A stretch of DNA of 64,000 nt. It comes from Gammaproteobacteria bacterium (GTDB taxonomy: Bacteria > Pseudomonadota > Gammaproteobacteria > Steroidobacterales > Steroidobacteraceae). Where the stretch lies: the NCBI GenBank assembly GCA_040007735.1, contig JBDTUL010000001.1, positions 3,933-67,932 on the forward strand. Reading direction: 5' to 3'. The translations under genes and the position numbers were made by a program. The notes under the pieces were generated by a model, which saw only the letters and a program-made list of their open reading frames with translations, was not told the DNA's origin and made no database searches. Below, piece by piece: positions 20,829-44,302 of the stretch (within the stretch, counting starts at the first letter, position 1; each line of letters starts with the position of its first letter).

Positions 20829-20855
20829 GCGTAGCGACCTGTGGAAACTCCCTAG
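20829..20855 (-). promoter_or_regulatory. island box, long form (gene-sense CTAGGGAGTTTCCACAGGTCGCTACGC)
   Basis: 47-73 nt upstream of the USP start at 20782, in the divergent fixL/USP intergenic region. 25 of 26 nt identical to the box at 42430..42456. Confidence 0.6.
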
Positions 20856-20888
20856 TTCGAGACGAGTGACCTGGGACATACTTCCACC

Positions 20889-22046
20889 ATGTCCGAACCC
20901 ACACTCCAGGCACTTCTGGAAGCTGCCGTCGATGCGGTCGTCCTCATCGATCATCGGGGTTCGATCACGGCTTTCAATCGTTCTGCCGAACGCCTGTTCG
21001 GCTACGGGTCCGAGGAACTGCTCGGCAGGAACGTGAGCATCCTGATGCCTGCGCCGCACCGGGCCGAGCACGATAGTTATCTCGAGCGCTATGCCCGAAC
21101 GGGCATCCCGCACATCATTGGCGTCGGCCGCGAGGTGGAAGGCCTGCGCAAGGACGGATCGTGCTTTCCCGCATTTCTTTCCGTCGGTCGCGTCGCGGGT
21201 GCCGAGCCGCCGCGATTTGTCGGGTTCGTGAGAGACATCACGACCGAGCGCCAGACACTCGCCAGCATCCAGGCCGAACGCGATCGGGCGGAAGCCCGGC
21301 AGAAGGAAGCGCAGCACGCGCGGGGACTGCAGGAGCGCATGACCCACGTGAGTCGCATGGCGACCATGGGCGAGATGGCCGCCGGCATTGCTCATGAGCT
21401 CAATCAGCCGCTGAGCGCTATAGCAACATACGCGCGAGCCTGCGAGCGTTTCCTCAAGATGGAGCAGCCCGACTTTCCGGAAACTCTCTCCGCGCTGAGC
21501 GAGATCAGCCTCGAAGCGATGCGCGCCGGCGAGATAATCCGGCGGCTGAGGCAACTCGTGAGCGCACGACCGAGCGATCACGTAACAACAGACCTCAATG
21601 CACTCGTTCGAGACCTCGAAGTGCTCATACAGGCTGATGCCAGAGTCCACAAGACTCAGATCGAGTTCGATCTCGCCGCCACACTACCGCCCGTACGCGG
21701 CGACCACACGCAGCTGCAACAACTGGCGCTGAGCCTCGTGCGCAACTCAATCGAATCGCTCACCGAATCTGAAACAAGTGGCCGGCTAGTGATCATCCGC
21801 ACGTCCCGCGTGCCGGACGGCCGGTTGGAGGTGAGCGTTTGCGACAACGGTCCAGGCGTCGCGCCGGACATGGTGGATCGGCTGTTCATCCCATTTGTCA
21901 CGACGAAGGTCAACGGCACAGGACTCGGTCTCTCAATTAGTCAGACCATCGCCCAGGCTCATGGCGGCACAATCGGATATCGACCGCACACGCCCGTCGG
22001 CGCGTGCTTCTGCGTGCGCCTGCCCCCTTTAGAGGAAGCAGAATGA
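20889..22046 (+). CDS. fixL: oxygen-sensing heme-PAS histidine kinase FixL (soluble form)
   Basis: PAS domain with the FixL heme-pocket signature (PAPHRAEHDSYLERYARTG...GREVEGLRKDGSCFPAFLSVG). H-box MGEMAAGIAHELNQPLSAI. HATPase boxes (NSIES, DNGPGV, GTGLGLSIS). No TM segment. Confidence 0.85.
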   Translation: MSEPTLQALLEAAVDAVVLIDHRGSITAFNRSAERLFGYGSEELLGRNVSILMPAPHRAEHDSYLERYARTGIPHIIGVGREVEGLRKDGSCFPAFLSVGRVAGAEPPRFVGFVRDITTERQTLASIQAERDRAEARQKEAQHARGLQERMTHVSRMATMGEMAAGIAHELNQPLSAIATYARACERFLKMEQPDFPETLSALSEISLEAMRAGEIIRRLRQLVSARPSDHVTTDLNALVRDLEVLIQADARVHKTQIEFDLAATLPPVRGDHTQLQQLALSLVRNSIESLTESETSGRLVIIRTSRVPDGRLEVSVCDNGPGVAPDMVDRLFIPFVTTKVNGTGLGLSISQTIAQAHGGTIGYRPHTPVGACFCVRLPPLEEAE

Positions 22047-22669
22047 AAGAGACCGCCCCCACCGTGTATATCGTCGATGATGATAACGGTGTCCGATCTT
22101 CCATCCGGGTGCTGATGAAGTCGGTTGGGCTACCTGCGATGGCGTTGGCGTCGGCAAAGGAATTCCTCGCAAGCTATCACCCCAACCAGCCGGGCTGCCT
22201 CGTGCTGGACATACGAATGCCAGGTATGAGCGGGCTGGAGCTGCAGGAAGCACTCAACGAACGGGGTGCCGTGATCCCGGTTATCTTCATCACGGGCCAC
22301 GGCGATATCCCGATGGCCGTTGAAGCGATGCGCCATGGTGCGTTCGACTTCCTGCAGAAGCCGTTCCGTGACCAGGACCTGCTCGATCGCATACAGAAGG
22401 CACTCGCTCGTGACGTGGAGACCCGCGAATCTCTGCGCGAACACGGGCGCACACGTGTTCGCATCGCCTCACTCACACCGCGCGAGCGGGAAGTCCTGGA
22501 CCTTCTCACGTCCGGGAAAGCCAACAAGATGATGGCCCAGGACTTGGGACTGAGTCAGCGAACAGTGGAGATTCACCGCGCGCACGTAATGGAAAAGATG
22601 GGCGCCAAGTCCGTCGCTCAGCTGGTGCGCATGGTCATGGATCTGGAGTTCCGCGGCTCGCAGACCTAG
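22043..22669 (+). CDS. fixJ: response regulator FixJ (receiver + LuxR-type HTH)
   Basis: ATG 22043 overlaps the fixL stop (ATGA). Receiver domain (VYIVDDD, LVLDIRMPGMSG, LQKPF) plus HTH (LTPREREVLDLLTSGKANKMMAQDLGLSQRTVEIHR). Confidence 0.85.
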   Translation: MKETAPTVYIVDDDNGVRSSIRVLMKSVGLPAMALASAKEFLASYHPNQPGCLVLDIRMPGMSGLELQEALNERGAVIPVIFITGHGDIPMAVEAMRHGAFDFLQKPFRDQDLLDRIQKALARDVETRESLREHGRTRVRIASLTPREREVLDLLTSGKANKMMAQDLGLSQRTVEIHRAHVMEKMGAKSVAQLVRMVMDLEFRGSQT

Positions 22670-22715
22670 CGCGCGGCTCCGTGCGTCGCTGAGGGTATAC
22701 TTGCGCACGCGGCGA

Positions 22716-23107
22716 TCAATTCGTGACGAGGACGGGACTTATGAATCCCGCCGGCTTTCCGACCAGCAGATCGCAGTCCGTTTGTTCGAGCACCTGTGAG
22801 GCGGTGCTGGCGGAGCCCGAAAACCGTTGTCTCGCGGCCACGCCCATTACGAGCACGGCCGGTTTCACTTCCTGCACCAGATCGTTGTTCCGCCCGCCCA
22901 GCTTTCCGGAACGTCCTGACCGACATCGCAAACGAAGAGCTCCAGGGCGCTGCCGTAACTTGCGGCCAGCCGCGCAGCCTTTTGAACGCAGGAATGTGCC
23001 GTCACGGTCGGATCGACGACCACGAGGATTTTCTGGATGGCGTCGTGCCCAAACGCACGCTCTACGTACCGTATCGATCGGGGGTGAAGCTCTGTCGGGT
23101 CGCTCAT
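22716..23107 (-). pseudogene. single-domain USP, frameshifted and internally shortened
   Basis: The N-terminal half lies in one frame (MSDPTELHP...IQKILVVVDPTVTAHSCVQKAARLAASYGSALELFVCDV, stop at 22865). The C-terminal half lies in another frame (DLVQEVKPAVLVMGVAARQRFSGSASTASQVLEQTDCDLLVGKP, stop at 22716). The switch is near 22880-22900. Confidence 0.5.
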
Positions 23108-23243
23108 TTTCGGCTCCTTCAACACTGCGTCCTAGTATCGACACTATGGAAAACTCTCCCATACGCAGTATTGCGGTATTGGCTACGGAGCTGACGAATG
23201 CGCCGGCAAAGCAAGCGGCACCGCGATGCCCGGGGCTCGCCGC

Positions 23244-23783
23244 CTACGCGGTCGGGTTTGAATCGACGCGCGGCAGAGGACGGCTGCGATTTATCGCCGC
23301 GACGAACACGGCTAGTTTTGTGTCGTATAAGGCCGCGTCTGCCAGATCGCGTGCATCGAATCCCACTGCCGCCAGAGCTATACGCCCGGATACGCGTTGC
23401 AGCTGGGGCACGAGTTTCATAACCTCAGTGCTACCGGAAGTGGTGAAGTACGCCACGTCCCCAAGTCGGGAACGGCAGCGGTTCAGAAAAGCGCGTACGC
23501 CCGGCGTCATGCGCCCGAACCACACCGGCGTGCCTATGATCGTCAGAGCGTAGTCCTGCGGATCGGTCGAAAGCGAGCCAATGCTCGCGGCCTTACCTCT
23601 CATCGCGTCGAAGGCACACTTGAGGTATCCCACAAAGCCAGTGCCGTGACCTTCGTCGCGGATGCTTTCGACATCCGCACCCATCAAGCGGGCGATGTCG
23701 CGTGCCACCCTGGCCGTGTTTCCGCTCATTGAGTAATAGACCACCAGCACTTTTCCTGCGTTGGCACCTGCGCCGCTTACCAT
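23244..23783 (-). CDS. flavodoxin-family protein
   Basis: KVLVVYYSMSGNTARVARDIA is a flavodoxin FMN-loop pattern. ATG 23783 has a GGAGA Shine-Dalgarno 6 nt upstream. The ORF-track start at 23801 is a TTG. Confidence 0.7.
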   Translation of the reverse strand: MVSGAGANAGKVLVVYYSMSGNTARVARDIARLMGADVESIRDEGHGTGFVGYLKCAFDAMRGKAASIGSLSTDPQDYALTIIGTPVWFGRMTPGVRAFLNRCRSRLGDVAYFTTSGSTEVMKLVPQLQRVSGRIALAAVGFDARDLADAALYDTKLAVFVAAINRSRPLPRVDSNPTA

Positions 23784-23863
23784 GAAGACTCTCCAAATCA
23801 AGTCCTTATCAGGGTATTCAGTCTAAGAGAGCCGGCCCACTCCGATCGTCAGTAGTACCGCCG

Positions 23864-23891
23864 AGCGCCGTTGGGGAAACTGCGTAGCGAC
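23864..23891 (-). promoter_or_regulatory. rearranged island box upstream of flavodoxin gene (gene-sense GAATCCTTCGTCGCTACGCAGTTTCCCC)
   Basis: Contains the same two cores (TCGCTACG and AGTTTCC) as the long boxes, but in swapped order. 81-108 nt upstream of ATG 23783. Confidence 0.35.
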
Positions 23892-23973
23892 GAAGGATTC
23901 AGATTTCACTTGCCGGCACGGCGGTACCACTCGAGCTGCCTTGTGCAGGCACCAGCCGGGATAATCTGGAAGC

Positions 23974-26655
23974 TCACCCTTCCTGAGGGTGTATGTCGAG
24001 CCTGATGCGCACGACGCCTTCCTGCGCCATCTCCAAACGAAAGCCCTGTGTTTTCGCAAGTTGCAACATACGCGTGTTCGAGGCGAGTACATCCCCGATC
24101 ACCTGTCGAACTCCAAGTTGCCGGCAATAACGAACGATCTTCTCCATGAGCACGGCGCCAAGGCCATGGCCCTTCAGGTCTGAACGCACCAGCACGGCAA
24201 ACTCGGCACTCTCACTGTCTGGATCGGTCTGCGCGCGCACCACTCCAAGGGTCTCAGAGCGGCCGTCCGGTCCCGGCGCCGTGGCAATGAAGGCCATCGA
24301 GCGCTCGTAATCCAACTGAGTAAGATACGCGAGCTCGCCCGGTGGAAGCTTCTTCACCGCATGAAAGAAGCGCGCTTGCATGTCGTCTTCGGAAATGCGC
24401 GAAATGAATTCCTGATGCTGAGGCGCATCTTCGGGCCTCAAGGGACGCAGCAGTATCGTGCGATGGCCGAGAGTGAGTTGCTCTTCCAGCTCTTTGGGAT
24501 AGGGCCTGATGGCGAGCCGGTCGGCTGCCCTGCCTGTGGCTCGCGCGACCCGGATGCGTGCGTCCAGCGCCATGACGCCAGCGTCGTCGGCCAGCAGCGG
24601 GTTGATATCGAGTTCGACGATCTCAGCGATATCCACGGCAAGCCGGGAAACCTGCACGAGCGCTCGCTCCAGCGCTTGCATGTCGGCAGCCGGGTAATTG
24701 CGGAACCCCGCAAGCAACCGGCGCACACGCGTGCGGGAAATGAGCTCCGCCGCCAGCACCGTGTTGAGCGGCGGGAATCCGACTGCCTTGTCTGGAGCGA
24801 CTTCGACCTGCACGCCACCCTTGCCGAACAATATGATAGGGCCGAATGTTGCATCGACCGCGATTCCGACGATTAATTCGTGTGCGTGAGGCTTTCGTAC
24901 CATCGATTGTACGGTGAAGCCTTCGAGGCGCGCCTGCGGCCGCTGCACCCGGCATCGCTCCAACATCAGGTTTGCAGCCCGCGCCAATGCGTCGGCGTCG
25001 GCGATGTCGAGCACCACACCATCAACATCCGATTTGTGAGTGATATCCGGCGATAGAATCTTGAGTGCGACCGGATACCCCAGCGCCGCGGCTTCGACAA
25101 GCGCATCGTCCACATGTGATGCAATGCGCGTGGGGACGACGGGAATGAGATATGCGGCGAGAACCCGCTTCGCTTCGAGTTCGTTCAGAATGAATCGCCC
25201 CTCATCGAGCGCCGCGGAAATGATTGCTCTGACTTCCTCAGGGCGGGGCGCAAACGATTCCGGAACTGACGAGGGAACCTCCATCAGTTGCCGCTGATTG
25301 CGGTTGTAGCGGACCGCGTGGATGAACGCGCCGATAGCCTCTTCCGGCGTCGAGTATGTGGGAACGCCTGCGTCAGTGCAGAGCTTCCTCGCCTCGCGCA
25401 CGGCTTCGCCCCCCATCCAGCACGTAAGGACCGGGCGGCCGCTCGCAGCGATTTTTTCTGCGGAAAATCTCGCGATCGTCGTTGCCGGCACAATGGCGGT
25501 TGGCGCGTGTATCAAGAGCGCGGCATCCACGGCGGGATCGGCGAGCACGCATTGGAGCGCTTCGACATATCTCGTCGCCGGCGCATCCCCGATAATATCC
25601 ACGGGGTTTGCATGCGACCAATTCGGTGGCAATACCGCGTCGAGCCTCGCAATCGTCTGTGCCGATAGCGTTGCAAGCTCACCCTGCTCGGCGATGAGCT
25701 CATCGGTTGCCATGACCGCCGGCCCTCCTCCATTGCTCACGATCGCAAGGCGCTCACCGTGCAGCGGCTTCAGTCGGACGAGCGTCTCGGCCGCATCGAA
25801 GAGCTCTCGCGTGGTATCGACTCGCAACATGCCTGAGCGCCTGAACGCGGCGTCGTAGACATCATCCGCACCCGCCAGAGCGCCGGTGTGTGATGCGGCT
25901 GCCTTTGCGCCTTCTGCATACCGACCTGCCTTGACGACTATGACGGGCTTGTTCCGCGCCGTGGCGCGTGCGGCCGACATGAACTTTCGCGCGGCGCTGA
26001 TCGATTCGACGTAAAGCAGGATCGCCCGCGTATGCGAATCGCGAGCCAGGTAATCGAGCAGATCTCCAAAATCCACGTCCGCACAGTTACCGAGCGAGAT
26101 GAGGCACGAGAAGCCAATCTTCGCCGTACGCGCCCAGTCGAGCATCGCGGTCGCCAGCGCGCCGGATTGCGCAATGAAAGCAAGATTTCCCGACAGCGCC
26201 TGCGCGTGAGCGAAGCTTGCATTCAACCCAATGCGCGGCTGGAGAATCCCCAGGCAGTTTGGGCCGAGAATGCGCAACGTATGCGGCCGGGCTGCCTGAA
26301 GCATGGCTTGCGATAACGTGCCGCCGTCCGGGCCCGGAGCATCGAGACCCGCAGTAATCACGACGGCTGCGCGCGTGCCCAGCTCACCAAGCTCACCAAT
26401 CAGGCTCGGGACGGTAGATGCCGGCGTGCAAATGACTGCGAGATCCGGCACGCCGGGTAGATCACGGATGCTCTTGAATGCGAGGCGGTTCGCCACCTTC
26501 TGATGCCGCAGATTCACGGGCCATATCGGGCCGGCGAATCCACCTTCGAGAAGGTTGCGCATCACGGTGGCTCCCACGCTGCCGGGTCTGTCCGACGCGC
26601 CGATGAGCGCAACAGAGTGAGGCTCGAGCAGAAAATCGAGATTGCGACTGCTCAT
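23974..26655 (-). CDS. Pat/YfiQ-like protein acetyltransferase (NDP-forming acyl-CoA synthetase domains + C-terminal GNAT)
   Basis: 893 aa. CoA-binding N-terminus (SVALIGASDRPGSVG), succinyl-CoA-synthetase-like and ATP-grasp regions. C-terminal GNAT (ETLGVVRAQ...VLVRSDLKGHGLGAVLMEKIVRYCRQLG). Confidence 0.85.
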   Translation of the reverse strand: MSSRNLDFLLEPHSVALIGASDRPGSVGATVMRNLLEGGFAGPIWPVNLRHQKVANRLAFKSIRDLPGVPDLAVICTPASTVPSLIGELGELGTRAAVVITAGLDAPGPDGGTLSQAMLQAARPHTLRILGPNCLGILQPRIGLNASFAHAQALSGNLAFIAQSGALATAMLDWARTAKIGFSCLISLGNCADVDFGDLLDYLARDSHTRAILLYVESISAARKFMSAARATARNKPVIVVKAGRYAEGAKAAASHTGALAGADDVYDAAFRRSGMLRVDTTRELFDAAETLVRLKPLHGERLAIVSNGGGPAVMATDELIAEQGELATLSAQTIARLDAVLPPNWSHANPVDIIGDAPATRYVEALQCVLADPAVDAALLIHAPTAIVPATTIARFSAEKIAASGRPVLTCWMGGEAVREARKLCTDAGVPTYSTPEEAIGAFIHAVRYNRNQRQLMEVPSSVPESFAPRPEEVRAIISAALDEGRFILNELEAKRVLAAYLIPVVPTRIASHVDDALVEAAALGYPVALKILSPDITHKSDVDGVVLDIADADALARAANLMLERCRVQRPQARLEGFTVQSMVRKPHAHELIVGIAVDATFGPIILFGKGGVQVEVAPDKAVGFPPLNTVLAAELISRTRVRRLLAGFRNYPAADMQALERALVQVSRLAVDIAEIVELDINPLLADDAGVMALDARIRVARATGRAADRLAIRPYPKELEEQLTLGHRTILLRPLRPEDAPQHQEFISRISEDDMQARFFHAVKKLPPGELAYLTQLDYERSMAFIATAPGPDGRSETLGVVRAQTDPDSESAEFAVLVRSDLKGHGLGAVLMEKIVRYCRQLGVRQVIGDVLASNTRMLQLAKTQGFRLEMAQEGVVRIRLDIHPQEG

Positions 26656-26875
26656 GGGACGATGCTAGTCGCTTCCAGCGCCTCAGATCGGACAGTTGCG
26701 CGAAGCGGCGTTCGATGAGAGGCTACTTGACGGGATCCGCACTCCCAGCTGGTTTTCATGCTGTCCTCCGAACTCGTCCGCCGGGTCCTCGACTCGGCTC
26801 CCGACACAGTGTATTCATGCTGTTGCCATCTTCGCAGCGCGCACACTTACGTCGCTAAGTGCAACGTACTACCCG

Positions 26876-26895
26876 CTAAGGATTCGTTCGTATGT
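26876..26895 (+). promoter_or_regulatory. island box, short form CTAAGGATTCGTTCGTATGT
   Basis: 73 nt upstream of ATG 26968. A second CTAAGT...ACTAC-like copy lies just upstream (26854..26872). 17 of 20 positions are invariant across the three short-form copies. Confidence 0.55.
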
Positions 26896-26967
26896 CCCTG
26901 CGGGGCTCGCGGTGGAAACATGGCGCACTTGAGGCGGCCCTGCTTTCCTGCTTCAGCCGGAGATCAC

Positions 26968-27147
26968 CATGGGCACCATCCGCACGGTTCTCGTCGCAGT
27001 GAAAGACTCCACGGCGATCTCATTGCCGGCCGTCACGAAAAGCGCGCGCCTGGCGCGTGGATGCGTTTCGCAGGACTTCCGAGTGCGGGCCTCGCAGCCT
27101 GACAGAGGAAACCATTTCATGGCCACGACCATCCGGAGTCTCTCATG
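26968..27147 (+). pseudogene. N-terminal fragment of a family-2 tandem USP
   Basis: 59-codon ORF, below the track cutoff. MGTIRTVLVAVKDSTAISLPAVTKSARLARG... matches the N-termini of the four 327-329 aa USPs for about 30 residues and then diverges. Its stop overlaps the start of the intact USP at 27145. Confidence 0.5.
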
Positions 27148-28583: not shown

Positions 28584-28985
28584 TCAGCTCGCGCGCTGCG
28601 GATGCATTCGATCCTCCACCTTGAAGAACTTCCGCGCGTGCGCCACGATTTCTCCGTCAGTCGGATGATCGAGCGTTTCCACCGCCAGGATACGCGCTCT
28701 AAGTTTTTGATCATGGTGTTCAATGTGCTTGATGAGTTCGTGCTTCGCGTTTGCTGGCCCGACGACGAGCACTTCACCGGCGCCGGCGATGGCCGACACG
28801 ACCCGGTGAAAGAATGGCTGATCTTCTGTCGCGTGACCGCTTCCGATTGAATTCGCCTTGTGGTGAAGATGCAGTGTCGGATTCGTGGCCGACACCAACA
28901 CCCTCGCGAAACCCTCGGCATTCAAGTGGAAAACACGGGCCTCGTGATGATCGATCCACACCGCAGAGTGATAGTGCTGAGTCAC
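28584..28985 (-). CDS. small conserved protein of the eRF1-like type often annotated as translational machinery protein (tentative)
   Basis: 133 aa. MTQHYHSAVWIDHHEARVFHL...HLHHKA...VLVVGPANAKHELIKHIEHH...LDHPTDGEIVAHARKFF resembles a recalled ~130-aa family seen in Burkholderia and Cupriavidus. Not verified. Confidence 0.4.
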   Translation of the reverse strand: MTQHYHSAVWIDHHEARVFHLNAEGFARVLVSATNPTLHLHHKANSIGSGHATEDQPFFHRVVSAIAGAGEVLVVGPANAKHELIKHIEHHDQKLRARILAVETLDHPTDGEIVAHARKFFKVEDRMHPQRAS

Positions 28986-29183
28986 AGATTTACTCCAGAT
29001 TTGAACGGCGTCGGAGCGCGGGCCGCGAACCGGCGCCAGAAGCAGCGTCGAGTATCAGGTGAATGTTCACACGAACACCCCCATGCGCCGTGAGGAACAG
29101 TCACGGGTGGTTTACGCATTCCTGCGTATGCCCCGCCGCTCGGGTGATTGCCGCCACGGATTGAACGACATACTTGGAATGCC

Positions 29184-29543: not shown

Positions 29544-29701
29544 GTTCCTCACCTCGCCGTTGATTGCATAGTGCAGTAGCTGTGCACATCTGAACACTGA
29601 GATTTTTCGGCCTGCGCTACGCAGTTCTCCCGGTAGAAATGTCGACCCGCGTACGCGGTACGCACTTTTGGGCGTAACTTCGCGTTAGTTCCGCTAGAAG
29701 A

Positions 29702-29721
29702 CTAAGGACTCTTTCGTATGT
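29702..29721 (+). promoter_or_regulatory. island box, short form CTAAGGACTCTTTCGTATGT
   Basis: 59 nt upstream of ATG 29780. Preceded by GTTAGTTCCGC (29684..29694), which resembles the AGTT(T)CC core. Confidence 0.55.
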
Positions 29722-29779
29722 GCTGAATTGACCGGCGTGCAATCATTTTGTGCGCATCCTCACGAGCGAGAACACGGTC

Positions 29780-32397: not shown

Positions 32398-32844
32398 ATG
32401 CAAGAAACCGCATCGACCGTTTTCATTGTCGATGACGACTACGGCGTGAGATCGTCCATCCGAGTACTCATGAAATCGGTTGGTCTTCCCGCCACACCTT
32501 ACGCGTCGGCAAGAGAGTTCCTGGATGTATACCACCCGAGCCAGCCCGGCTGCGTGGTACTCGATATCCGTATGCCCGGCATGAGCGGGCTCGAGCTGCT
32601 GCAGGCGCTCAATGAGAAAGGCGCGGTAATACCCGTCATCTTCATCACCGGCCACGGCGACATCCCGATGGCCGTCGAGGCCATGCGTCTCGGCGCATTC
32701 GACTTCCTGCAGAAGCCGTTCCGGGACCAGGATCTGATCGACCGGATCCAACAGTCCCTGGCCCGCGACGCAGAGACGCGGGAAGAACTTCAGGAGCACG
32801 GACCCGATCCGGGCCGTTGGCCGCGAGACAACAGTGCTGGCTGA
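32398..32844 (+). CDS. receiver-only paralog of FixJ (LuxR HTH missing)
   Basis: The first ~125 aa are about 80% identical by eye to FixJ 22043..22669 (VDDD.GVRSSIRVLMKSVGLPA...IRMPGMSGLEL...VIPVIFITGHGDIPMAVEAMR.GAFDFLQKPFRDQDL). After ...ELQEHG it reads 13 unrelated residues and stops. 32845..33050 is non-coding. Confidence 0.75.
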   Translation: MQETASTVFIVDDDYGVRSSIRVLMKSVGLPATPYASAREFLDVYHPSQPGCVVLDIRMPGMSGLELLQALNEKGAVIPVIFITGHGDIPMAVEAMRLGAFDFLQKPFRDQDLIDRIQQSLARDAETREELQEHGPDPGRWPRDNSAG

Positions 32845-35256: not shown

Positions 35257-35276
35257 CTAAGGAGTCTTTCGTATGT
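35257..35276 (+). promoter_or_regulatory. island box, short form CTAAGGAGTCTTTCGTATGT
   Basis: 62 nt upstream of USP ATG 35338, in the divergent intergenic region shared with the operon starting at 35236. Confidence 0.55.
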
Positions 35277-36436: not shown

Positions 36437-36754
36437 CTAGTCCTTCGAACCGCACGATGGCCCGCCGATGATGAGGCCCGCGATGAACGCAAAACCTGCT
36501 GCGGCTCCGACGGTCTTCCAGGTGTTTTCACGAAAGTAGCCGTCCACGGCCTCGACGCGCTGATGTAAAGCGCGCGTGATCGCCTGGTGCACGCCGTCGA
36601 TCCGCGCGCGAATCGCCGCCACTTTGCAATCGACCTGAGGATCCTGCGCCGCGCTGCCACCGGCAGGCGCCGCGGCCGCGGCTTTCGTAAGCTCATCGAT
36701 GTCGGCGAGCACGCGCGTGAGGTCTTCGAGAACCTGTCGGGAATTAATGGACAT
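36437..36754 (-). CDS. DUF883 (ElaB/YqjD/YgaM-like) membrane-anchored stress protein
   Basis: ORF trimmed to ATG 36754, which has an AAGGAGGA Shine-Dalgarno upstream. Coiled-coil region plus C-terminal anchor NTWKTVGAAAGFAFIAGLIIGG. Confidence 0.7.
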   Translation of the reverse strand: MSINSRQVLEDLTRVLADIDELTKAAAAAPAGGSAAQDPQVDCKVAAIRARIDGVHQAITRALHQRVEAVDGYFRENTWKTVGAAAGFAFIAGLIIGGPSCGSKD

Positions 36755-36811: not shown

Positions 36812-36851
36812 CTGAGTAGTTCCGCAGGCACACTCGGGAGAATCGCGTAGT
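36812..36851 (+). promoter_or_regulatory. degenerate island box (CTGAGTAGTTCCGCAGGCAC...ATCGCGTAGTC)
   Basis: 58-97 nt upstream of the DUF883 start, but in inverted orientation relative to that gene. Shares the CT(A/G)AGTAGTTCC core. Confidence 0.3.
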
Positions 36852-38227: not shown

Positions 38228-38306
38228 AGCCGCCCTCTGATTGTTCTGGACTGGTGCATTTGAGGAAACATCACCCCGGTGTGTCATTCGGGGGATTGCC
38301 TGCCGA

Positions 38307-38333
38307 CTAAGTAGTACTCGCGTGCCCCTACGG
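38307..38333 (+). promoter_or_regulatory. island box, long form CTAAGTAGTACTCGCGTGCCCCTACGG
   Basis: 95 nt upstream of the ATPase remnant start at 38428. Same 27-nt frame (CTAAG at 1-5, CTACGG at 22-27) as 44276..44302 and 42430..42456. Confidence 0.5.
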
Positions 38334-38427
38334 TTCCGCGCGAATGGGCGTCGTCGATCGCCGAAGAGATGATAGGGCATGCTACCTGTGAGTGTGACCG
38401 GCACGTCCGCAGCTTCTGCAACGGCTC

Positions 38428-38938
38428 GTGACGACACCGGACGGGCTCACCACCGAAGAGGCGGAGCGGCGTCTGCTGGCGCGCGGATTGAACCTCACTC
38501 ATTCGCCGGCCGCAACGCTGGAACATCAGACTCGTGCGCACCTTCATGCTGCTGGTCGGGCCAGTCAGCTCGCTTTACGATTTCCTCACGTTCTACGTGC
38601 TGCTGCACGTATTCCACTTCGACGAGGGCCTGTTCCAGACAGGCTGGTTTCTCGAATCTCTGGCGACGCAGACACTGGTGCTGTTCGTCATTCGTACGGT
38701 CGCCCGGCCTTGGAAAGACCGGCCGAGCGTTCCGCTGACGGTCACCACGCTGCTGGTCGTTCTTGTGGGCGGGATACTCCCGTACTCACCGCTTGCGCCG
38801 CCACTCGGGCTGCATCCGTTGCCAGCGGCGTACTTTCTGCTTCTCGCGGTAGTCACGGTCACTTACCTCGCGCTCGTCGAGCTCGTGAAGGGGCACGTGA
38901 TGAAAGGAATTCTCGCCTCCGGCGATAGAATTGCATAG
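38428..38938 (+). pseudogene. MgtA-type P-type ATPase with a large internal deletion (N-terminal ~30 aa joined out of frame to the last ~135 aa)
   Basis: The frame starting at 38428 reads MTTPDGLTTEEAERRLLARGLN, a P-type ATPase N-terminal motif. The frame 38534..38938 reads RTFMLLVGPVSSLYDFLTFYVL...GWFLESLATQTLVLFVIRT...LVKG, the MgtA C-terminal TM helices. DKTGT and the rest are absent. Confidence 0.6.
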
Positions 38939-38963
38939 TCGGGCCGAAGAGCGAGTTCAAACG

Positions 38964-38991
38964 CTTACGTAGTTTCACTGAGACTCTACGA
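38964..38991 (+). promoter_or_regulatory. island box, long-form variant CTTACGTAGTTTCACTGAGACTCTACGA
   Basis: 75 nt upstream of the CBS gene ATG 39066. Has AGTTTC(C)AC and CTACG cores at the same spacing as the other long forms. Confidence 0.5.
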
Positions 38992-39065
38992 AAGCCCGCG
39001 CATGGCGGATCAACCCCCCCGGCTATCAACATACTCGTGCGAATCGACCACTACAGGAGAGCACG

Positions 39066-39521
39066 ATGAACGTCGGACACCTTCGCCAGCACCACGTTGT
39101 AACGTGTCAGCCGGCCGACAATCTGGTTACCGCCGCAAGGCTGATGCGGGAGAAGCATGTCGGCTTCCTGGTGGTAGTAGAAGTCGATGCGCAGGATGGA
39201 GACCTTACGCCCATCGGGGTCATTACCGACCGGGACATCGTCATCTCGGTCGTTGCCGAGGACGTAAGTCCGCACTCGCTGACTGTCGGTGACGTGATGA
39301 CCCGCAAACCTGTGGTCGCGTTGTCAGAGGACCCACTTAGCGACTCCGTTCAACAAATGCGGCTGAAGGGTGTCAGACGTCTCCCCGTCGTAGGCACGCG
39401 CGGGCATCTCGTGGGTGTGATCTCGCTGGACGACGTGCTGACGAGGATGGCAGCGGATTTCGGAGGTGCAGCCGGCGCAATCTCCAAAGGTCGCGCATTG
39501 GAAACCGAGATTCGTCCGTAG
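39066..39521 (+). CDS. CBS domain-containing protein
   Basis: 151 aa with two CBS repeats (VVTCQPADNLVTAARLMREKHVGFLVVV ... VQQMRLKGVRRLPVVGTRGHLVGVISLDDV). Confidence 0.8.
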   Translation: MNVGHLRQHHVVTCQPADNLVTAARLMREKHVGFLVVVEVDAQDGDLTPIGVITDRDIVISVVAEDVSPHSLTVGDVMTRKPVVALSEDPLSDSVQQMRLKGVRRLPVVGTRGHLVGVISLDDVLTRMAADFGGAAGAISKGRALETEIRP

Positions 39522-39542
39522 CGCAATGACGTTGGAGCGGTC

Positions 39543-39923
39543 ATGGAACATCGCTGGGGTCGTCGTATAGAGGCTGACGTTGCCGTTCGCTTGGTAGCGT
39601 CTCCGGGTGCAATCGGCTGGGGCCGGCTGAGGAATGTGAGTATCAGCGGTGCATTCGTGGAGACCCGCCTGAGATTGCCCATGCTGGCGGTCGTCGATGT
39701 TGAGCCCCAGCACGGCCCGTCTGCAAATCGAAAGATTCAAAGGCTGCGCGCATGTGTCGTGCGACATAGCAGCGCGGGTATGGGGCTCGAATGGGAAGAA
39801 CTGTCCGGGCGCGCCCTCGAGGCCGTTCTCGGTCATAGCGCCGCCTCAGCAGCCGCGCCGCCTCCGAAGGGACACGATGAACTCGATCAACCCGACCGCT
39901 ACGTAATCTCCCTGAGTCGTTAG
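39543..39923 (+). CDS. PilZ domain-containing protein
   Basis: N-terminal RxxxR (HRWGRRIE) and D/NxSxxG (NVSISGAF) motifs characteristic of c-di-GMP-binding PilZ domains. Confidence 0.65.
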   Translation: MEHRWGRRIEADVAVRLVASPGAIGWGRLRNVSISGAFVETRLRLPMLAVVDVEPQHGPSANRKIQRLRACVVRHSSAGMGLEWEELSGRALEAVLGHSAASAAAPPPKGHDELDQPDRYVISLSR

Positions 39924-39936
39924 GCATCGCTACGAA
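39912..39936 (+). promoter_or_regulatory. degenerate island box (CTGAGTCGTTAGGCATCGCTACGAA)
   Basis: 77 nt upstream of USP ATG 40013, overlapping the PilZ stop. Shares the CTGAGT and TCGCTACG cores, but the spacing is 3 nt shorter. Confidence 0.3.
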
Positions 39937-40012
39937 TCGCGCTCGCCGACTACGTGACGCGAAGATGTAGCGCTCCGCTCAGATCCGGACAACGCCAACT
40001 GGAGAGCCGATT

Positions 40013-40999
40013 ATGCGAACCGTGCGCCGAATACTGGTGGCCGTGAAGGAACCTATGGCAAAACGCCTCCCGGCGGTCGAAAAGGCGACGCAGCTCGCTC
40101 GGTCGCTAGGTGCGGACGTCGAGCTGTTCCACTCGATCTCCGGGCCCATCTTTTTGGGCGCCGACAGTTTCGACGGTGGCAGCCTCGCAGAAGTCCAGAA
40201 CGCGCGTCGCGTCCAGGTCAAAAGCCGTCTCGAAGCGATTGCCAGCAAGATTCGCAAGCAGGGGATCAGTGTTAGCACATGCGCGGACTGGGACTTCCCC
40301 GCCGGCGAGGCGATTGTCCGGCGCGCGGCTCGCACTCGGTCCGATCTGATCGTGGCGGACTGTCACGCGGGCAAGCATCACGGTTCCTGGCTCCTGAGGC
40401 TGACCGACTGGGAGCTTCTGAGACATAGCTCTGTGCCGGTGCTGCTCGTGAAGAGCGCTCGCCCGTATCGGAATCCGGTCGTGCTCGCCGCGGTGGACCC
40501 GGGGCACGCGTTCGCTAAGCCCGCAAAGCTCGACGATGAGATTCTGAGTGCCGCCGCATTAGTGAAGAGGACGCTGCGAGGAACCCTACACGCCGTACAC
40601 GCCTATGTACCAGTGCCAAACGATGCGAAGCCTTCCGAGTTGCTCGATCCCGACGCGACCAGGACTCTGGATGCCCGCGCTCGCACGCACGCCCGCCAAC
40701 GGCTTCAGCCGCTGCTCAAGAAGGTTACGGTGCCGCCTGGCCAACGGCACCTCGTAGGCCAGCATCCTATCAACGCGATCCCCGATCTGGCGCGCGAAAT
40801 CGGCTGCGCCATATTGGTTATGGGTGCAATTTCACGTTCCGGACTAAAGCGCCTTTTTATCGGCAACACGGCGGAACGGATACTCGATGAGGTAGGGTGT
40901 GACGTGCTTGTGGTGAAGGCGCCGGGCTTTGCAAGTCGAATTCCCTATGCCGAACGCGGGACACGAGTGGTTATGTCGCCAATGCCGCGTCGGCCCTGA
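40013..40999 (+). CDS. tandem universal stress protein, family 2
   Basis: 328 aa. MRTVRRILVAVKE...ELFHSI...WDFPAGEAIVRRA...LTDWELLRHSSVPVLLVK...LVMGAISRSGLKRLFIGNTAERIL...DVLVVKAP. Confidence 0.85.
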   Translation: MRTVRRILVAVKEPMAKRLPAVEKATQLARSLGADVELFHSISGPIFLGADSFDGGSLAEVQNARRVQVKSRLEAIASKIRKQGISVSTCADWDFPAGEAIVRRAARTRSDLIVADCHAGKHHGSWLLRLTDWELLRHSSVPVLLVKSARPYRNPVVLAAVDPGHAFAKPAKLDDEILSAAALVKRTLRGTLHAVHAYVPVPNDAKPSELLDPDATRTLDARARTHARQRLQPLLKKVTVPPGQRHLVGQHPINAIPDLAREIGCAILVMGAISRSGLKRLFIGNTAERILDEVGCDVLVVKAPGFASRIPYAERGTRVVMSPMPRRP

Positions 41000-41470
41000 C
41001 TATTTCATTGGCATGGGCGCGGCGCGCTTCTGACCATCCTGCTCCGTGCGCTGAATAGAGCGCAGATAGGTGACGAGACGATCCACTTTGTCGGTTGCCT
41101 GCCGATGAGCAACTTCATCGTCCGGGTCGTCGCCAAAGAATTCATAGCCCCACACGGGCATGTGTCGAGGTCCGTGCGAGCGCAGTTCTGCCTGACCGTC
41201 GATGATTCGAAATATCTCGAGGTCCGGAAACACTCCACCGCGACGTGCGGATATCAGCGTAAGGTCTGGCACCTTGACTGTCAGAAACGGTGACACCGGC
41301 CCATTGCCACGAGCGTCGGCGCCGTGGCAACCCGCGCACGAGACCTGATAGAGGTGCCCACCCGGCGCGTGCTTGCGGACGTCATCAGCACGAGTGGCCG
41401 CCCAGCGCAGCGCCATGACTGCGACGATCGCCAGAATCGTAGTGTTACGAGCCCACATGGCAGGCATCAT
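41000..41470 (-). CDS. monoheme c-type cytochrome
   Basis: 156 aa with a signal-like N-terminus and a CAGCHG heme motif. The start overlaps the stop of the upstream USP by 4 nt. Confidence 0.75.
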   Translation of the reverse strand: MMPAMWARNTTILAIVAVMALRWAATRADDVRKHAPGGHLYQVSCAGCHGADARGNGPVSPFLTVKVPDLTLISARRGGVFPDLEIFRIIDGQAELRSHGPRHMPVWGYEFFGDDPDDEVAHRQATDKVDRLVTYLRSIQRTEQDGQKRAAPMPMK

Positions 41471-42363
41471 GCCGTAACCGCGCGTGCCGGCTCAGCGACA
41501 CCGCCGGCCCAGCCTCCTGATTTCACGAGCACGAAGTCGGATTCGAGCGCATCTACCAGCCTGCTGGTAAGAGTCCCCATCAACGCGGCAAGACCCTTCC
41601 GGCGGCTCAGCGCACCCATGATCAGAACGTCATACGGTACTCGCGCGGCAAAGCCGGGCAACGTGTCTTCGGCGTCACCGTGGAGCACATGCAATCGTTC
41701 ATTACCCACGCGGAACTCGTGGACAAGGCGATTCAGAGTGCCAGTACGTGCATCGTGAGCAGCGGCGTCTCCGTTCTCAGGGTCGCTGAATACGACGTCG
41801 AGTTGTGCGTGACAGCCCTGAGCCAGTAAGCCCGCAGTGTGCAGGATCGAACGCGCAAGACCGGTTCCCTCCCGCTCGGACACATCGACGGCCGCAGCAA
41901 ACGTGGGGCGTGCGCTCCAGGGACGACCACGCGTGAGCATCAGGGGCGCAGGGCAAACTCTCACGAGCTGCCAATCGTTCGCGTCCAGCGCAAACCGCTG
42001 CAGTGGGTGATGACCCGCCGCACTCTTGATAACGAGGTCGGGCTTCGTCTCGAGCACTCGCTGTACAATCGCCTCATAGTGCGGGCTCACGGCAGATACA
42101 TGAGTCGATATTTCGACATCATCGGCCAGCGATTGCCGAAGTGCCTCGAGGTAACGCATACCTCTGGCGACACATGCCCGCAGGGCGGCCTCGACCCCGG
42201 CGTGATCATATGTGTGCCGCAGGATGAAAGCCTGCTCCGAATCGCAGAGGAACAACTCCAGTCGGGCGTTAAAATCGCGCGCCAGCACCATGGCTTTGGC
42301 CAGGACGTGCCTGGTCTCATCGGCTGGATCGATCACAACGAGAATTGAGCTCAGTTTTTCCAC
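41467..42363 (-). CDS. tandem universal stress protein (UspE-like), family 1
   Basis: ORF 41467..42612 trimmed to GTG 42363 (VEKLSSILVVIDPADETRH...). This gives 298 aa, the same length as paralog 19886..20782. Confidence 0.85.
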   Translation of the reverse strand: MEKLSSILVVIDPADETRHVLAKAMVLARDFNARLELFLCDSEQAFILRHTYDHAGVEAALRACVARGMRYLEALRQSLADDVEISTHVSAVSPHYEAIVQRVLETKPDLVIKSAAGHHPLQRFALDANDWQLVRVCPAPLMLTRGRPWSARPTFAAAVDVSEREGTGLARSILHTAGLLAQGCHAQLDVVFSDPENGDAAAHDARTGTLNRLVHEFRVGNERLHVLHGDAEDTLPGFAARVPYDVLIMGALSRRKGLAALMGTLTSRLVDALESDFVLVKSGGWAGGVAEPARAVTA

Positions 42364-42429
42364 GGTGGCGCCCTCTGTCCGTGGTAAGCATGCTCGCCCG
42401 CAGAGCCCGATCACGAAATGCGTGTGGTT

Positions 42430-42456
42430 CCGTAGCGACCTGTGGAAACTCCTTAG
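42430..42456 (-). promoter_or_regulatory. island box, long form (gene-sense CTAAGGAGTTTCCACAGGTCGCTACGG)
   Basis: 67-93 nt upstream of GTG 42363. A 22-nt run (CGTAGCGACCTGTGGAAACTCC) is identical to 20830..20851. Confidence 0.6.
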
Positions 42457-42464
42457 CGCCCCGC

Positions 42465-43603
42465 GACCGTGCACGTTCCATCGGATCCAGCGCCTGGGCG
42501 TCACTTGCCAATACGGCGGTTTCCAGAAGGCGCCGCAGAGCCGGGGAGTGCGCGATGTCTTCGCACGCCTGATTCGGCCGCCAGGACTCTTGGGCGCTCT
42601 GCATCTGTACAAGCGACATGGAATTGCGCGTCAGCGTGCCAGTCTTGTCAGTGCACAGAACCGTCGCGGATCCAAGCGTTTCGATAGCAGAGGCTCGCCT
42701 GGTGAGCACACGTGACCGCGACAGACGCCACGCCCCCATCACCATGAACACGGTCAGCACGAGCGGGAATTCCTCTGGCAGCATCGACATGCCGAGCGCG
42801 ATGCCACCGAGCAACGCATGCAACCAATCGCCGCGCAGAACGCCGTACAGCACTACGGCAAGCGCGCTCAACACGAATCCCGCTATAGCAAAGATGACAA
42901 CCAGGCGCCGCATCTGCGCCTGCAGCCGGGGCTGCTCTTGCTCGATGGCGCTCACCGCGCGCCCGATCTTCCCGATCTCGCTGCGGCCGCCCGTGGCCGT
43001 GACGGTCGCAAGACCCGTACCGCGCAGAATCAGCGTTCCGGAGAACAGATAAGGGAGATCGTCGCCACCCGGCGCGGCAGGCGCCGAACCGCCCTGGTCG
43101 GCGAGGCGCTTGCGAACCGGAACAGATTCGCCGGTGAGTAACGACTCATCTACGCGAATATCGCTGCCCTCCACGAGTATCGCGTCAGCGGCTACCCGGT
43201 CGCCCTCTGTCACCACGAGCAAGTCGCCGCGCACCACGTCTCGTCCCGCAATGCGATGTCGCTCGCCATCGCGGATGACAAGCGCACGCGGACTCGTGAG
43301 ATCCCTGAGCGCATCGAGCACTCGTTCGCTGCGACCTCGCTGGATCATCGCAATGGAAACCGACACAGTCGCGAAGGCTGCCAGCACGACTGCCTCACCC
43401 ACATCGCCGATCACCGCGTATAGAACGGCTGCGCCAATCAGAAGCGCAAACATCGGCTCGCGCATCACCTCGAGCGCGATGACGAAACCCGAATGGCGCT
43501 CGGGTGAAGGCAGATCGTTATAGCCCTCGCGAGCAAGCCGCAACTCGGCTTCACGCTGCGTCAGGCCGAGCGGCCCGCGTCCGGATGTCACGGATGCAGG
43601 CAT
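42465..43603 (-). pseudogene. cation-transporting P-type ATPase (type II-like), 3'-truncated after ~380 codons
   Basis: From ATG 43603: MPASVTSGRGPLGLTQREAELRLAREGYNDLP..., TGESVPV, CTDKTGTLT. ATPase-like sequence ends at ...DAQALDPMERA (about 42468). The ORF then reads through the USP promoter box. The N and P domains and the C-terminal TM helices are missing. Confidence 0.65.
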
Positions 43604-43607
43604 GGCA

Positions 43608-44047
43608 TCAGCGCGTGAAAGCCAGCTGCTCTTTTGGGCCGCTCCACTCCGAGCGTGCCAGGAAATCCGCGACTCCAACCAGATCGTCACGGTCGAGCCG
43701 AGCCAGCAACCGCACGTGTTCGCGCGAGAAGTTGGGTCGGCGACCATCGACTGCGTCGTACATCTGTCGCAGCACATACGCATAGTGCTGGCCGGCGAGA
43801 CGTGGGATCGCACCGGGATCGTCACCCTCGCCCTGCGGCCCGTGGCAGCTCGCGCAGCGCTGGGCATAGACGGCGGCGCCGTGCTCGACAAGCTCACCAT
43901 TGCCCACGTTACGCGGCCGCTCGCGCGCCATCCTGCTGACATACTCCGCTACTGCGCGGTTGCCTCGGAGCGTGCATCGAAGGGCAGAAGTGCGGCGGAG
44001 ACTGTGGCCACGATGACGAGTAAGGCGTGAAGTCCGGTTGATCTCAT
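43608..44047 (-). pseudogene. monoheme c-type cytochrome with signal peptide in a different frame (frameshift or sequencing error)
   Basis: ATG 44047 gives MRSTGLHALLVIVATVSAALLPFDARSEATAQ followed by a stop at 43949. The heme domain (GELVEHGAAVYAQRCASCHG...LAGQHYAYVLRQ...DLVGVADFLA) lies in another frame, 43608..~43960, without any signal peptide. Confidence 0.5.
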
Positions 44048-44275
44048 GCTGTGGCACTCAATGCGAGTTGCGCAGGTCGGTGCGGCACACGCCGCAAGCC
44101 GAAACCTGCAGCAAGAGCTCGTGCTCGTGGAGAGGCCGAATGGGCGTGTCCTCGAGCTGCAACGGTTTTCCGGGTGAATGAACGCGCATCGCGCGCATCG
44201 AACTGGGACGAATCACGTTACGCACTCCGCACGACAGCCTGACAAGGAGAATGTCAGGTTACGCGGCATGACAAA

Positions 44276-44302
44276 CTAAGTACTTCCACGGCTCGACTAC
44301 GG
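44276..44302 (+). promoter_or_regulatory. island box, long form CTAAGTACTTCCACGGCTCGACTACGG
   Basis: 84 nt upstream of BON gene ATG 44386. A weaker CAAGGAGAATGTCAGGTTACGCGG copy lies at 44242..44265. Confidence 0.5.

Follow-up and report, generated by a model that had tools for sequence, protein, structure and literature searches.

Candidate FixJ operators in a low-oxygen gene cluster of a gammaproteobacterium

The cluster and its recurrent box

This study concerns a short sequence box that recurs in the intergenic DNA around fixL and fixJ, genes encoding a sensor kinase and a response regulator, in a gammaproteobacterium of the family Steroidobacteraceae. The DNA considered, here called the window, is a stretch of 64,000 nucleotides (contig JBDTUL010000001.1 of GenBank assembly GCA_040007735.1, positions 3,933 to 67,932). 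A preliminary description, made from the letters alone, had pointed to eight main copies of the box and several degenerate ones and had proposed that they mark a hypoxia regulon, with the adjacent FixJ, or an unseen NarL/LuxR-type regulator, as the obvious candidate binder.

As identified by Pfam and NCBIfam, the genes begin on the left with hemN (7139-8533, minus strand), followed by fixS, fixI, fixH and fixG, and then by fixP, a questionable fixQ, fixO and fixN (13266-16473, minus). Next come a small open reading frame (ORF) with a CxxC motif (16470-16655, minus), ligB and ligA (16767-17968, minus), an L,D-transpeptidase gene, a gene for a universal stress protein (USP-A, 19886-20782, minus), and fixL and fixJ themselves. 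To their right lie a USP fragment, a flavodoxin gene, a gene for a Pat-like acyl-CoA synthetase/GNAT protein, a USP remnant with USP-B, SirB and a hypothetical gene; then the genes for a cytochrome c, LOG, USP-C and a receiver-only protein, an AAA33/APH kinase, a hypothetical protein, USP-D, DUF883 and a beta-CASP RNase. The series continues with a C-terminal remnant of a P-type ATPase, CBS-PilZ, USP-E, a second cytochrome c, USP-F and the N-terminal remnant of the ATPase, and ends with BON-nrdJ, Hsp20, MgtC, a TraI_2 relaxase-like gene and a truncated integrase. This content, as annotated (seven USPs, class II ribonucleotide reductase, Hsp20, CBS protein, cbb3 oxidase and hemN), fits survival at low oxygen.

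The window has a G+C content of 62%, and 14% of it is intergenic after curation of gene starts. The twelve sequences quoted in the preliminary description were all found exactly at their coordinates and strands, and the recurrence noted there was borne out by both pattern counts and a weight matrix: the box is strongly over-represented and almost confined to intergenic DNA. Because CTAAG is rare, occurring only 20 times on the two strands of the window, the pair CTAAG-N16-CTACG would be expected about 0.02 times (by arithmetic from the CTAAG count), but it is found exactly three times (42431-42456 on the minus strand, 38307-38332 and 44276-44301 on the plus strand) and a fourth time with one mismatch (20830-20855). 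The short form TAAGGANTCNTTCGTATG, with up to three mismatches, has four matches against the 0.12 expected from shuffled sequences, and TAMG-N8-CKTA has five against 0.55. For the unified pattern TAMG-N8-CGYAT there are eight matches, every one intergenic, where 1.09 would be expected and where no more than five appeared in any of 300 shuffles.

A 14-nt weight matrix trained solely on the eight main sites of the preliminary description gave six additional matches of at least 11 bits, five of them intergenic (binomial P about 3e-4, by arithmetic); random first-order sequence gave a mean of 2.7 matches at that threshold, with no positional bias. The sixth, at 39899, lies inside the putative PilZ ORF, in its final 25 nt and 100 nt 5' of the USP-E start, and it is the sole exception to the placement of the 14 matches in non-coding DNA. 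A REP-like (repetitive extragenic palindromic) density inside genes, which would have told against a regulatory role, is thus not what the window displays. Unweighted Hamming-neighbour motif discovery in intergenic DNA was dominated by GC-rich low-complexity words; when words were re-ranked by intergenic/coding enrichment, the box family was recovered. The motif is genuine and belongs to the non-coding DNA that precedes genes.

What had been described as a single box of 27 nt resolves into two tandem sites: a distal box, with consensus CTAAGnAGTTTCC, and 21 bp downstream of it a proximal site, CTACGnnnnnnnnnCG(C/A)AT, i.e. TAMG-N8-CGYAT. The short form, CTAAGGAnTCnTTCGTATGT, has the layout of the proximal site (TAAG-N8-CGTAT) and represents that site alone; 18 of its 20 positions are invariant, rather than 17. 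The gene-sense orientation and the spacing to start codons hold up, at about 45-90 nt from the end of the box. Copies thought to be degenerate fared variously. That at 23864-23891 is instead a strong minus-strand site (CTACGCAGTTTCCC, 23887->23874). The one at 39912-39936 is indeed a box before USP-E, with a better site beginning at 39899, and the one at 16733-16754 is a box that makes most sense on the minus strand (CTACGTAGAACTCC), ahead of the small ORF and ccoN. Further sites lie outside the range given for the set, down to 8.5 kb; those beyond the set described earlier stand upstream of ccoNOQP, hemN, ligAB, the flavodoxin gene and one hypothetical gene (Table 1). The 35257 site, read on the other strand, is TACG-N8-CTTA and faces the divergent hyp34634-AAA33 operon, so that this palindromic site may serve both that operon and USP-D.

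Table 1. Candidate FixJ sites, associated -10-like hexamers and regulator genes in the window (L numbers denote loci of relatives)
Feature	Position	Strand	Remarks
USP-A promoter, distal box CTAGGGAGTTTCCA	20842..20855	-	-47..-34 of the divergent fixL start (ATG 20889); conserved there in about 25 FixL orthologue loci
USP-A promoter, proximal site CTACGCAAGCGCGCGCAT (TACG-N8-CGCAT)	20817..20834	-	pattern scan, orthologue consensus
fixL, putative -10, CATACT	20877..20882	+	6 nt before ATG; nATACT kept 6-8 nt before ATG in orthologues
USP-F operator, distal CTAAGGAGTTTCCA + proximal CTACGGAACCACACGCAT	42418..42456	-	-10-like GAGCAT 42390-42395
BON-nrdJ operator, distal CTAAGTACTTCCAC + proximal CTACGGAGCCCTCCGAAT	44276..44314	+	-10-like GAAAAT 44337-44342
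P-type ATPase remnant operator, CTAAGTAGTACTCG ... CTACGGTTCCGCGCGAAT	38307..38345	+	-10-like GATGAT 38368-38373
CBS-PilZ operator, TTACGTAGTTTCAC ... CTACGAAAGCCCGCGCAT	38965..39003	+	-10-like CAACAT 39027-39032
USP-E operator, CTACGTAATCTCCC, extra CTACG at 39930	39899..39935	+	-10-like GAAGAT 39961-39966; orthologous box L024 18101
Flavodoxin box CTACGCAGTTTCCC	23874..23887	-	-10-like TAGACT 23820-23825
Small CxxC ORF + ccoNOQP operator, CTACGTAGAACTCC + TTATGCAGTCGTGC	16715..16750	-	-10-like CAGTAT 16683-16688; conserved in L024, L021
ligAB box ATACGGGTTTCTGC (palindromic TACG-N8-CGTA 18055-18070)	18058..18071	-	-10-like TATCTT 18005-18010; equivalents L045 8969, L049 4380
Box ATACGCAGGAATGC, upstream of hypothetical gene 28584-28985	29117..29130	-	-10-like GAACAT 29064-29069
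Single site CTAAGGATTCGTTCGTATGT, upstream of USP remnant (26970-27104) + USP-B	26876..26895	+	-10-like AAACAT 26916-26921
Single site CTAAGGACTCTTTCGTATGT, upstream of cytochrome c - LOG - USP-C - receiver-only FixJ paralogue	29702..29721	+	-10-like AATCAT 29741-29746
Additional box CTACGCAGTTCTCC, 85 nt upstream of the 29702 site, no obvious separate target	29617..29630	+	matrix
Single site CTAAGGAGTCTTTCGTATGT, upstream of USP-D	35257..35276	+	pattern scan
hemN upstream pair, CTACGTAGTGTCCG (8567->8554) + inverted CTAGGTATTCCTCC (8594-8607)	8554..8607	-	same pair in L045
Weaker inverted pair upstream of DUF883 gene (36437-36754, -)	36812..36851	+	matrix
fixL, heme-PAS histidine kinase	20889..22046	+	Pfam, NCBIfam, PDB matches
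fixJ, REC + GerE/LuxR response regulator, candidate binder	22043..22669	+	Pfam, NCBIfam, PDB matches
Receiver-only FixJ paralogue, last gene of box-driven operon	32398..32844	+	sequence comparison

The candidate regulator, known FixJ sites and the relatives

The kinase has the domains expected of a heme-PAS sensor (PAS, HisKA and HATPase_c in Pfam). Residues 2-128 match the heme domain of Bradyrhizobium japonicum FixL (1dp6) end to end (E = 6e-37), and the HDSY segment with its histidine and the ..RY and G.GR segments with both arginine positions are kept. The C-terminal domain of the response regulator has S. meliloti FixJ-C (1x3u) as its best PDB match, and its recognition helix differs very little from the one in S. 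meliloti FixJ (RTVEIHRAHVMEKM vs RTVEVHRANVMAKM, with RTVE-HRA-VM conserved). The top NCBIfam families are 'sensor protein FixL' and 'response regulator FixJ', respectively. Since both scores fall under the curated cut-offs (given below), the pair is, by its sequence, a FixLJ-type system and not a certified equivalog. Beside a box, the window thus encodes a cognate FixJ whose recognition helix is of the FixJ type, and by annotation no other DNA-binding regulator is found in the cluster between 16 and 47 kb.

FixJ sites have been poorly defined to date, with two to four natural sites known per genome (PMC4999443). In the fixK promoter of S. meliloti the experimentally defined site is TAAGTAATTTCCCTTA, within an operator that extends from -69 to -31 with TAAG near -64, and in vitro selection (SELEX, systematic evolution of ligands by exponential enrichment) yielded two classes, GTAGTTTCCC and GTAMGTAG (PMC4999443). 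The FixJ cores named in the preliminary description (GTAGTTTCC-like and TACGTAG) agree with these classes. Rhodopseudomonas palustris PfixK carries GTACGTAG (PMC13327599). The window consensus matches the defined FixJ sites, and the comparison can be made independently: the matrix, built from the eight window sites only, was run over about 70,000 positions of S. meliloti pSymA (665-700 kb, the region of fixNOQP1, fixLJ and fixK1). Its top match there, CTAAGTAATTTCCC at 16.4 bits, is the published FixJ site of fixK (CTAAGTAATTTCCCTTAG), in sense orientation and 87 nt upstream of the fixK ATG. As a prediction of FixJ-type specificity from sequence, this cross-validation is the strongest single argument. 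The first pSymA match, H31, is a FixJ paralogue and not fixLJ. The second-best matrix match, CTACGGAGTCTCAA (15.9 bits; L099 position 31003, minus strand), lies about 2 kb downstream of a hemN homologue and could be an unreported FixJ site.

A metagenome scan with FixL gave 80 loci, from which 27 full-length orthologues of 51-83% identity were examined. In 24 of the 27, a box of 10.5 bits or more, built on the core TAMGnAnTTTCC, stands at -46..-51 (mostly -47/-48) from the fixL ATG, always on the strand opposite fixL; the remaining three have a weaker or divergent sequence at that position. In most members of a more distant FixL group (53-57%), GTACGCAaTAyyCC occupies the same place. Column consensus over 19 sequences shows conserved blocks (AGTAT, TTAnGnAGTTTCC, CTACGCAA and CGCGCAT) separated by unconserved DNA. 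Seen from the fixL strand, the AGTAT block is nATACT, placed 6-8 nt ahead of the ATG in about 25 orthologues (L018-L049), and further downstream of the blocks a cAGcAT-like hexamer can be made out by eye in the anchored sequences. Among the orthologues of the 51-54% group, where fixL has another same-strand gene in front of it, the box still stands at its usual distance from fixL, which makes the fixL promoter the conserved partner of the box. FixJ in the close loci is 81-91% identical.

Other boxes have counterparts as well: that of the ccoN small ORF in L024 and L021, that of USP-E in L024, that of ligA in L045 and L049, and the inverted pair of hemN in L045, with the same 27-nt offset between the start coordinates of its boxes. 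Boxes orthologous to that of nrdJ are found in two Steroidobacteraceae metagenome-assembled genomes (MAGs), L004 and L005; at both (9657-9705 and 16237-16301, respectively) nrdJ and a PolX/PHP-type DNA polymerase gene diverge, with two back-to-back FixJ-type boxes between them. The closest relatives of one marker protein in genome collections are Steroidobacteraceae and unclassified gammaproteobacterial MAGs (49-70% identity), which by itself places the organism only approximately. Exact patterns were less productive than the matrix. In 17 loci with AAA33/APH neighbours 50-70% identical to those here, they gave few palindromic intergenic matches and none to the short form, although the matrix found related boxes there; the 'long' matches in these loci look like coincidences in coding sequence. 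A crude coding mask for metagenomic loci (longest ORF plus G+C at third codon positions) was likewise discarded, as stop-to-stop frames cross the fixL boxes and mislabel them as coding. Megablast of 24.5 kb against plasmids gave no match, and neither did an exact search for FixJ in an assembly index.

The relation between USP-A and USP-F bears on the possibility that the copies are without function, being leftovers of duplication, a repeat of the REP or MITE (miniature inverted-repeat transposable element) kind, or an RNA element of 5' untranslated regions. The locus is indeed rich in paralogues and remnants (USP fragments and the split P-type ATPase), and the USP-A and USP-F boxes (L1/L2) descend from one duplication: the region upstream of USP-F is a copy of the USP-A/fixL intergenic region in which traces of the fixL start are still visible and the fixL -10 is deleted. 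The two proteins are 59% identical, close to the 60% estimated before. While the flanks have diverged to noise and cannot be aligned, a 40-nt operator block retains 35 of 40 positions and is better conserved than the coding DNA of the two genes. Selection on the box, argued earlier from this pair, is therefore upheld in that the operator block alone was kept, with the correction that the copies share ancestry by duplication. In addition, the genes behind the boxes are unrelated, boxes occupy orthologous positions in loci of 51-83% protein identity, and they keep a constant phase to -10 elements and start codons, unlike the position-independent hairpin unit of a REP or MITE. RNA folding gave nothing of note (z from -1.66 to +1.0) and no structure in common, Rfam has no matches, and the confinement of the matches to non-coding DNA (13 of 14) points the same way. 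An origin as functionless copies is thus largely refuted and, in our view, has next to no probability left.

Promoter geometry and the proposed circuit

For the purpose of relating boxes to promoters, a -10-like hexamer was defined as nAnnAT or TAnnnT, and its offset was counted from base 1 of the box. At tandem-type sites the hexamer falls at +62/63 in 9 of 11 cases (7 of 9 at first, before ligA and the hypothetical gene at 28584 were added to those of USP-F, BON, the ATPase remnant, CBS, flavodoxin, USP-E and the ccoN small ORF), and at single, short-form sites it falls at +40/41 in 3 of 3. With a chance of 0.032 per site (3-nt window), nine promoters sharing one hexamer position are far beyond chance. 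From the putative transcription starts so placed, the centre of the proximal site would be near -44 in both promoter classes and that of the distal site near -66, a fixed upstream phase overlapping the -35 region, as expected of a FixJ operator. Most of these starts would lie about 20-45 nt upstream of a Shine-Dalgarno sequence and start codon, the exceptions being the hypothetical gene at 28584 (about 72 nt), USP-A and the ATPase remnant.

A scan of 34-47.5 kb for pairs of sigma-70 -35 and -10 consensus elements found two, where 2.6 would be expected, and neither serves a box-associated promoter: one is intragenic, and the other (38398-38369) is on the opposite strand beside the box of the ATPase remnant. 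The lack of a usable sigma-70 -35 at the box promoters fits dependence on an activator. It might also suggest that the box is itself the -35/-10 element of an alternative sigma factor, particularly as CTAAG and CTACG are 16 nt apart, a spacing like that of promoter hexamers. But at that spacing the short form has no second element, a -10-like hexamer that is both separate and conserved lies at a fixed distance 35-60 nt downstream, the box has the opposite orientation at fixL, and the cluster contains no sigma factor gene. We regard this explanation as highly improbable. The CGCAT block, considered as a -35 element in its own right, was rejected; a better reading makes it the right-hand arm of the proximal palindrome, where the short form has CGTAT.

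Upstream of fixL the distal box of USP-A is met from its other side. No Shine-Dalgarno sequence precedes fixL; with nATACT as the -10, the fixLJ mRNA would probably be leaderless. Such a start puts the centre of the box at -40.5, a class II position, which implies positive autoregulation, and fixLJ does appear, on this reasoning, to be positively autoregulated.

The receiver-only protein (148 aa) matches FixJ residues 1-135 with an identity of 84% in protein and 75% in DNA, and the similarity ends exactly at the end of receiver plus linker, which speaks for a retained copy and not a recent truncation. Its gene is the last in the box-driven cytochrome c-LOG-USP-C operon, suggesting a FixT-like role in feedback; judged from these sequences, the paralogue is a possible feedback component.

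The model that emerges is as follows. At low oxygen, FixL, a presumed heme-PAS oxygen sensor, would phosphorylate FixJ. Dimers of FixJ~P would bind at the boxes and bring RNA polymerase to some 15 promoters with no usable -35 of their own, so that the effect would be activation rather than repression. The proximal TAMG-N8-CGYAT, centred about 44 bp upstream of the start and covering the missing -35, would place FixJ in the position of a class II activator, and at the long-form promoters a stronger distal CTAAGnAGTTTCC would be added two helical turns (21 bp) upstream of it, with its centre near -66. The predicted targets are the seven USP genes, BON-nrdJ, CBS-PilZ, flavodoxin, two cytochrome c operons, ligAB, the small ORF with ccoNOQP, hemN, and the fixLJ operon itself, this last driven by the distal box of USP-A, read in the opposite direction and standing at -40.5 of the fixL promoter. 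FixJ would thus act directly on a dormancy-type gene set, with no FixK/FNR relay. Negative feedback could come from the FixJ-induced receiver copy, which, lacking a DNA-binding domain, might act as a sink for phosphate or enter the FixJ dimer as a poison subunit.

Several observations weigh against this model. The -10 pattern was chosen after the orthologue alignment had been seen, and the -10 stands about 7 nt further from the box than it does in the fixK promoter of S. meliloti. USP-A has a degenerate -10 (CAGGCT) and a GTG start almost at the predicted transcription start. The forward box of hemN is merely 20 nt from the start codon, a spacing conserved in L045, and repression or a different geometry fits that position better than activation. 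FixJ scores 237.8 bits against a cut-off of 255 for NCBIfam NF006900, and over its full length its best PDB match is StyR, not FixJ; FixL scores 319.5 bits against a cut-off of 850 for NF041777, the rhizobial FixL family. Finally, similar boxes are found in Steroidobacteraceae loci with no close fixLJ within 10 kb.

The last of these, where boxes stand upstream of nrdJ, USP and polX-like genes in MAG loci, raises the possibility that the boxes are real operators bound by a factor encoded outside the window (a NarL/LuxR-type regulator, DosR-like or a FixJ paralogue), which would control fixLJ as well. The presence of a second, distantly related kinase beside fixLJ in many relatives could be read in the same way, as could the score of FixJ slightly under its family cut-off. 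Such a factor would nevertheless have to share the experimentally defined site of S. meliloti FixJ, to which the box is equal, while the nearly identical recognition helix belongs to the FixJ encoded here, the only DNA-binding regulator of the 16-47 kb cluster, and wherever orthologues of fixLJ turned up, the box goes with the fixL promoter. We therefore think an outside factor unlikely. The preliminary proposal, that the boxes are promoter-proximal candidate operators of the adjacent FixJ in a hypoxia regulon, is supported by the match to the fixK site, the features of FixL and FixJ, the conservation among orthologues and the gene content, and we put the probability that the boxes are, as predicted, FixJ operators at about 0.78.

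A broader reading joins all these elements: FixLJ would have wholly replaced the FixK/Anr/DosR tier and would directly govern a dormancy regulon of about 15 promoters (USPs, class II ribonucleotide reductase and CBS together with cbb3 oxidase, hemN and extradiol dioxygenase), with both positive and negative feedback. This we offer tentatively, since its chances seem to us a little short of even.

Neighbouring features and related systems

Some features of the locus deserve mention in their own right. The small ORF directly upstream of ccoN encodes 61 codons (MCCPLCEEPVRSVLFGL...) with a CxxC motif and one hydrophobic helix; its stop overlaps the GTG of ccoN (GTGA), and it is present also in L021, L024 and L049. 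The products of ligA (17618-17968, above the NCBIfam cut-off) and ligB are of the protocatechuate 4,5-dioxygenase type, an enzyme that requires O2. Their position between fixLJ and ccoNOQP, behind a FixJ-type box, is syntenic in relatives and is odd for a low-oxygen regulon. Three BON domains are found in the gene that precedes nrdJ in its operon. No cobalamin riboswitch was found at nrdJ (44276-45045), an Rfam scan of the window being empty. The region upstream of Hsp20 (46857-46980) contains CTAAGCGCAT...CGCATTGACA, with a perfect TTGACA, and is not a matrix match; Hsp20 may be under a different type of promoter, e.g. one for a heat-shock sigma. In the 489-nt intergenic region between Pat and USP-B, TTCATGCTGT is directly repeated at about 26755 and 26813 (26752-26825), and its 12-mer family is enriched in intergenic DNA.

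The locus has also been rearranged. The P-type cation ATPase is split into a C-terminal piece (38534-38938, plus strand) and an N-terminal piece (42480-43942, minus strand) about 4 kb apart, the latter abutted by USP-F and its promoter, and two USP genes are reduced to remnants (22865-23107, minus; 26970-27104, plus). Boxes persist beside the remnants all the same. After the cluster, at 49904-52209, come the TraI_2 relaxase-like gene and an integrase with only arm-binding and central domains. No tRNA gene was found in a scan of the window. The segment may be the edge of a decayed integrative element. At the other end, a CydX/YbgT-like small ORF (6418-6618, plus; MWYFSWILGLGFAIAF...) and an OsmC/Ohr-like ORF (6558-7001, plus), both recognized by eye only, lie in the gap of 1 kb that separates a Pyr_redox_2 gene from hemN.

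The candidate operators resemble the FixJ site of S. meliloti fixK in their shared core, CTAAG-n-A-n-TTTCC, in their imperfect palindrome (TAAG-N8-CTTA there, TAMG-N8-CGYAT here), in their gene-sense orientation, and in being compound operators spanning roughly -70 to -31 over a poor -35 region. They differ in their number (about 15 promoters as opposed to 2-4), in their gammaproteobacterial host, and in having two architectures, either direct sites in tandem at an interval of 21 bp or one palindrome at the proximal position. With the alphaproteobacterial FixLJ-FixK cascade, in which fixK is the sole conserved FixJ target (PMC4999443), the locus shares a heme-PAS FixL and a REC-LuxR FixJ linked to fixNOQP, fixGHIS and hemN. 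The cascade itself was not found, there being no Crp/Fnr-family (fixK) gene within the window. FNR-type boxes (TTGAT-N4-ATCAA) number 9 in a scan of the window, against 12.8 expected, with none near ccoN or hemN. Here, in contrast to the cascade, ccoN and hemN have FixJ-type boxes of their own, conserved in relatives, and fixLJ is apparently autoregulated.

In gene content the locus calls to mind the DosR (DevR) regulon of Mycobacterium tuberculosis, governed by an autoregulated NarL/LuxR-type regulator with a heme sensor kinase and a USP gene beside it, whose targets are rich in USPs, class II ribonucleotide reductase, alpha-crystallin/Hsp20, a CBS protein and a P-type ATPase. The likeness ends there: the sensor is a PAS-heme FixL rather than a GAF-heme DosS/DosT, the operator is based on TAAG and not of the GGGACT-N2-AGTCCC type, and lineage and regulator subfamily differ, so that this is not a DosR system. 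The lxa locus of Burkholderia cenocepacia likewise combines USPs, alpha-crystallin, ribonucleotide metabolism, electron transfer and regulators with a recurrent intergenic motif (Sass et al. 2013, PMC3721108). A clustered island and a recurrent upstream motif are common to both, but the lxa motif is FNR/Anr-like (TGA-N6-TCA; PMC3721108); it is not enriched in the window, where the motif is FixJ-type. As for the receiver-only gene, FixT of Caulobacter and Sinorhizobium is a single-domain receiver, induced by FixLJ as a feedback inhibitor and in Caulobacter furnished with a four-cysteine Fe-S motif (PMC7078487). A receiver-only gene lies behind a FixJ-type box here as well, with the difference that its product is a recent copy of FixJ's own receiver (84% amino acid identity over 135 residues).

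Operator and regulator are therefore of a known kind. It is the wiring that appears unusual: direct control of dormancy genes, cbb3 oxidase and hemN with no FixK, autoregulation through an operator shared by divergent genes, and a receiver-only copy of FixJ. The locus and its metagenomic relatives offer dozens of natural candidate FixJ sites in two architectures, which would provide a usable matrix and a model set of promoters. The predicted leaderless, autoregulated fixLJ, together with the receiver-only copy of FixJ, would make a compact feedback circuit that is directly testable. If the reading is true, then soil Gammaproteobacteria would have a programme for persistence at low oxygen, akin to those of DosR and lxa, that is wired directly to FixLJ without FixK, and the regulon would have been rewired while its physiological output remained unchanged.

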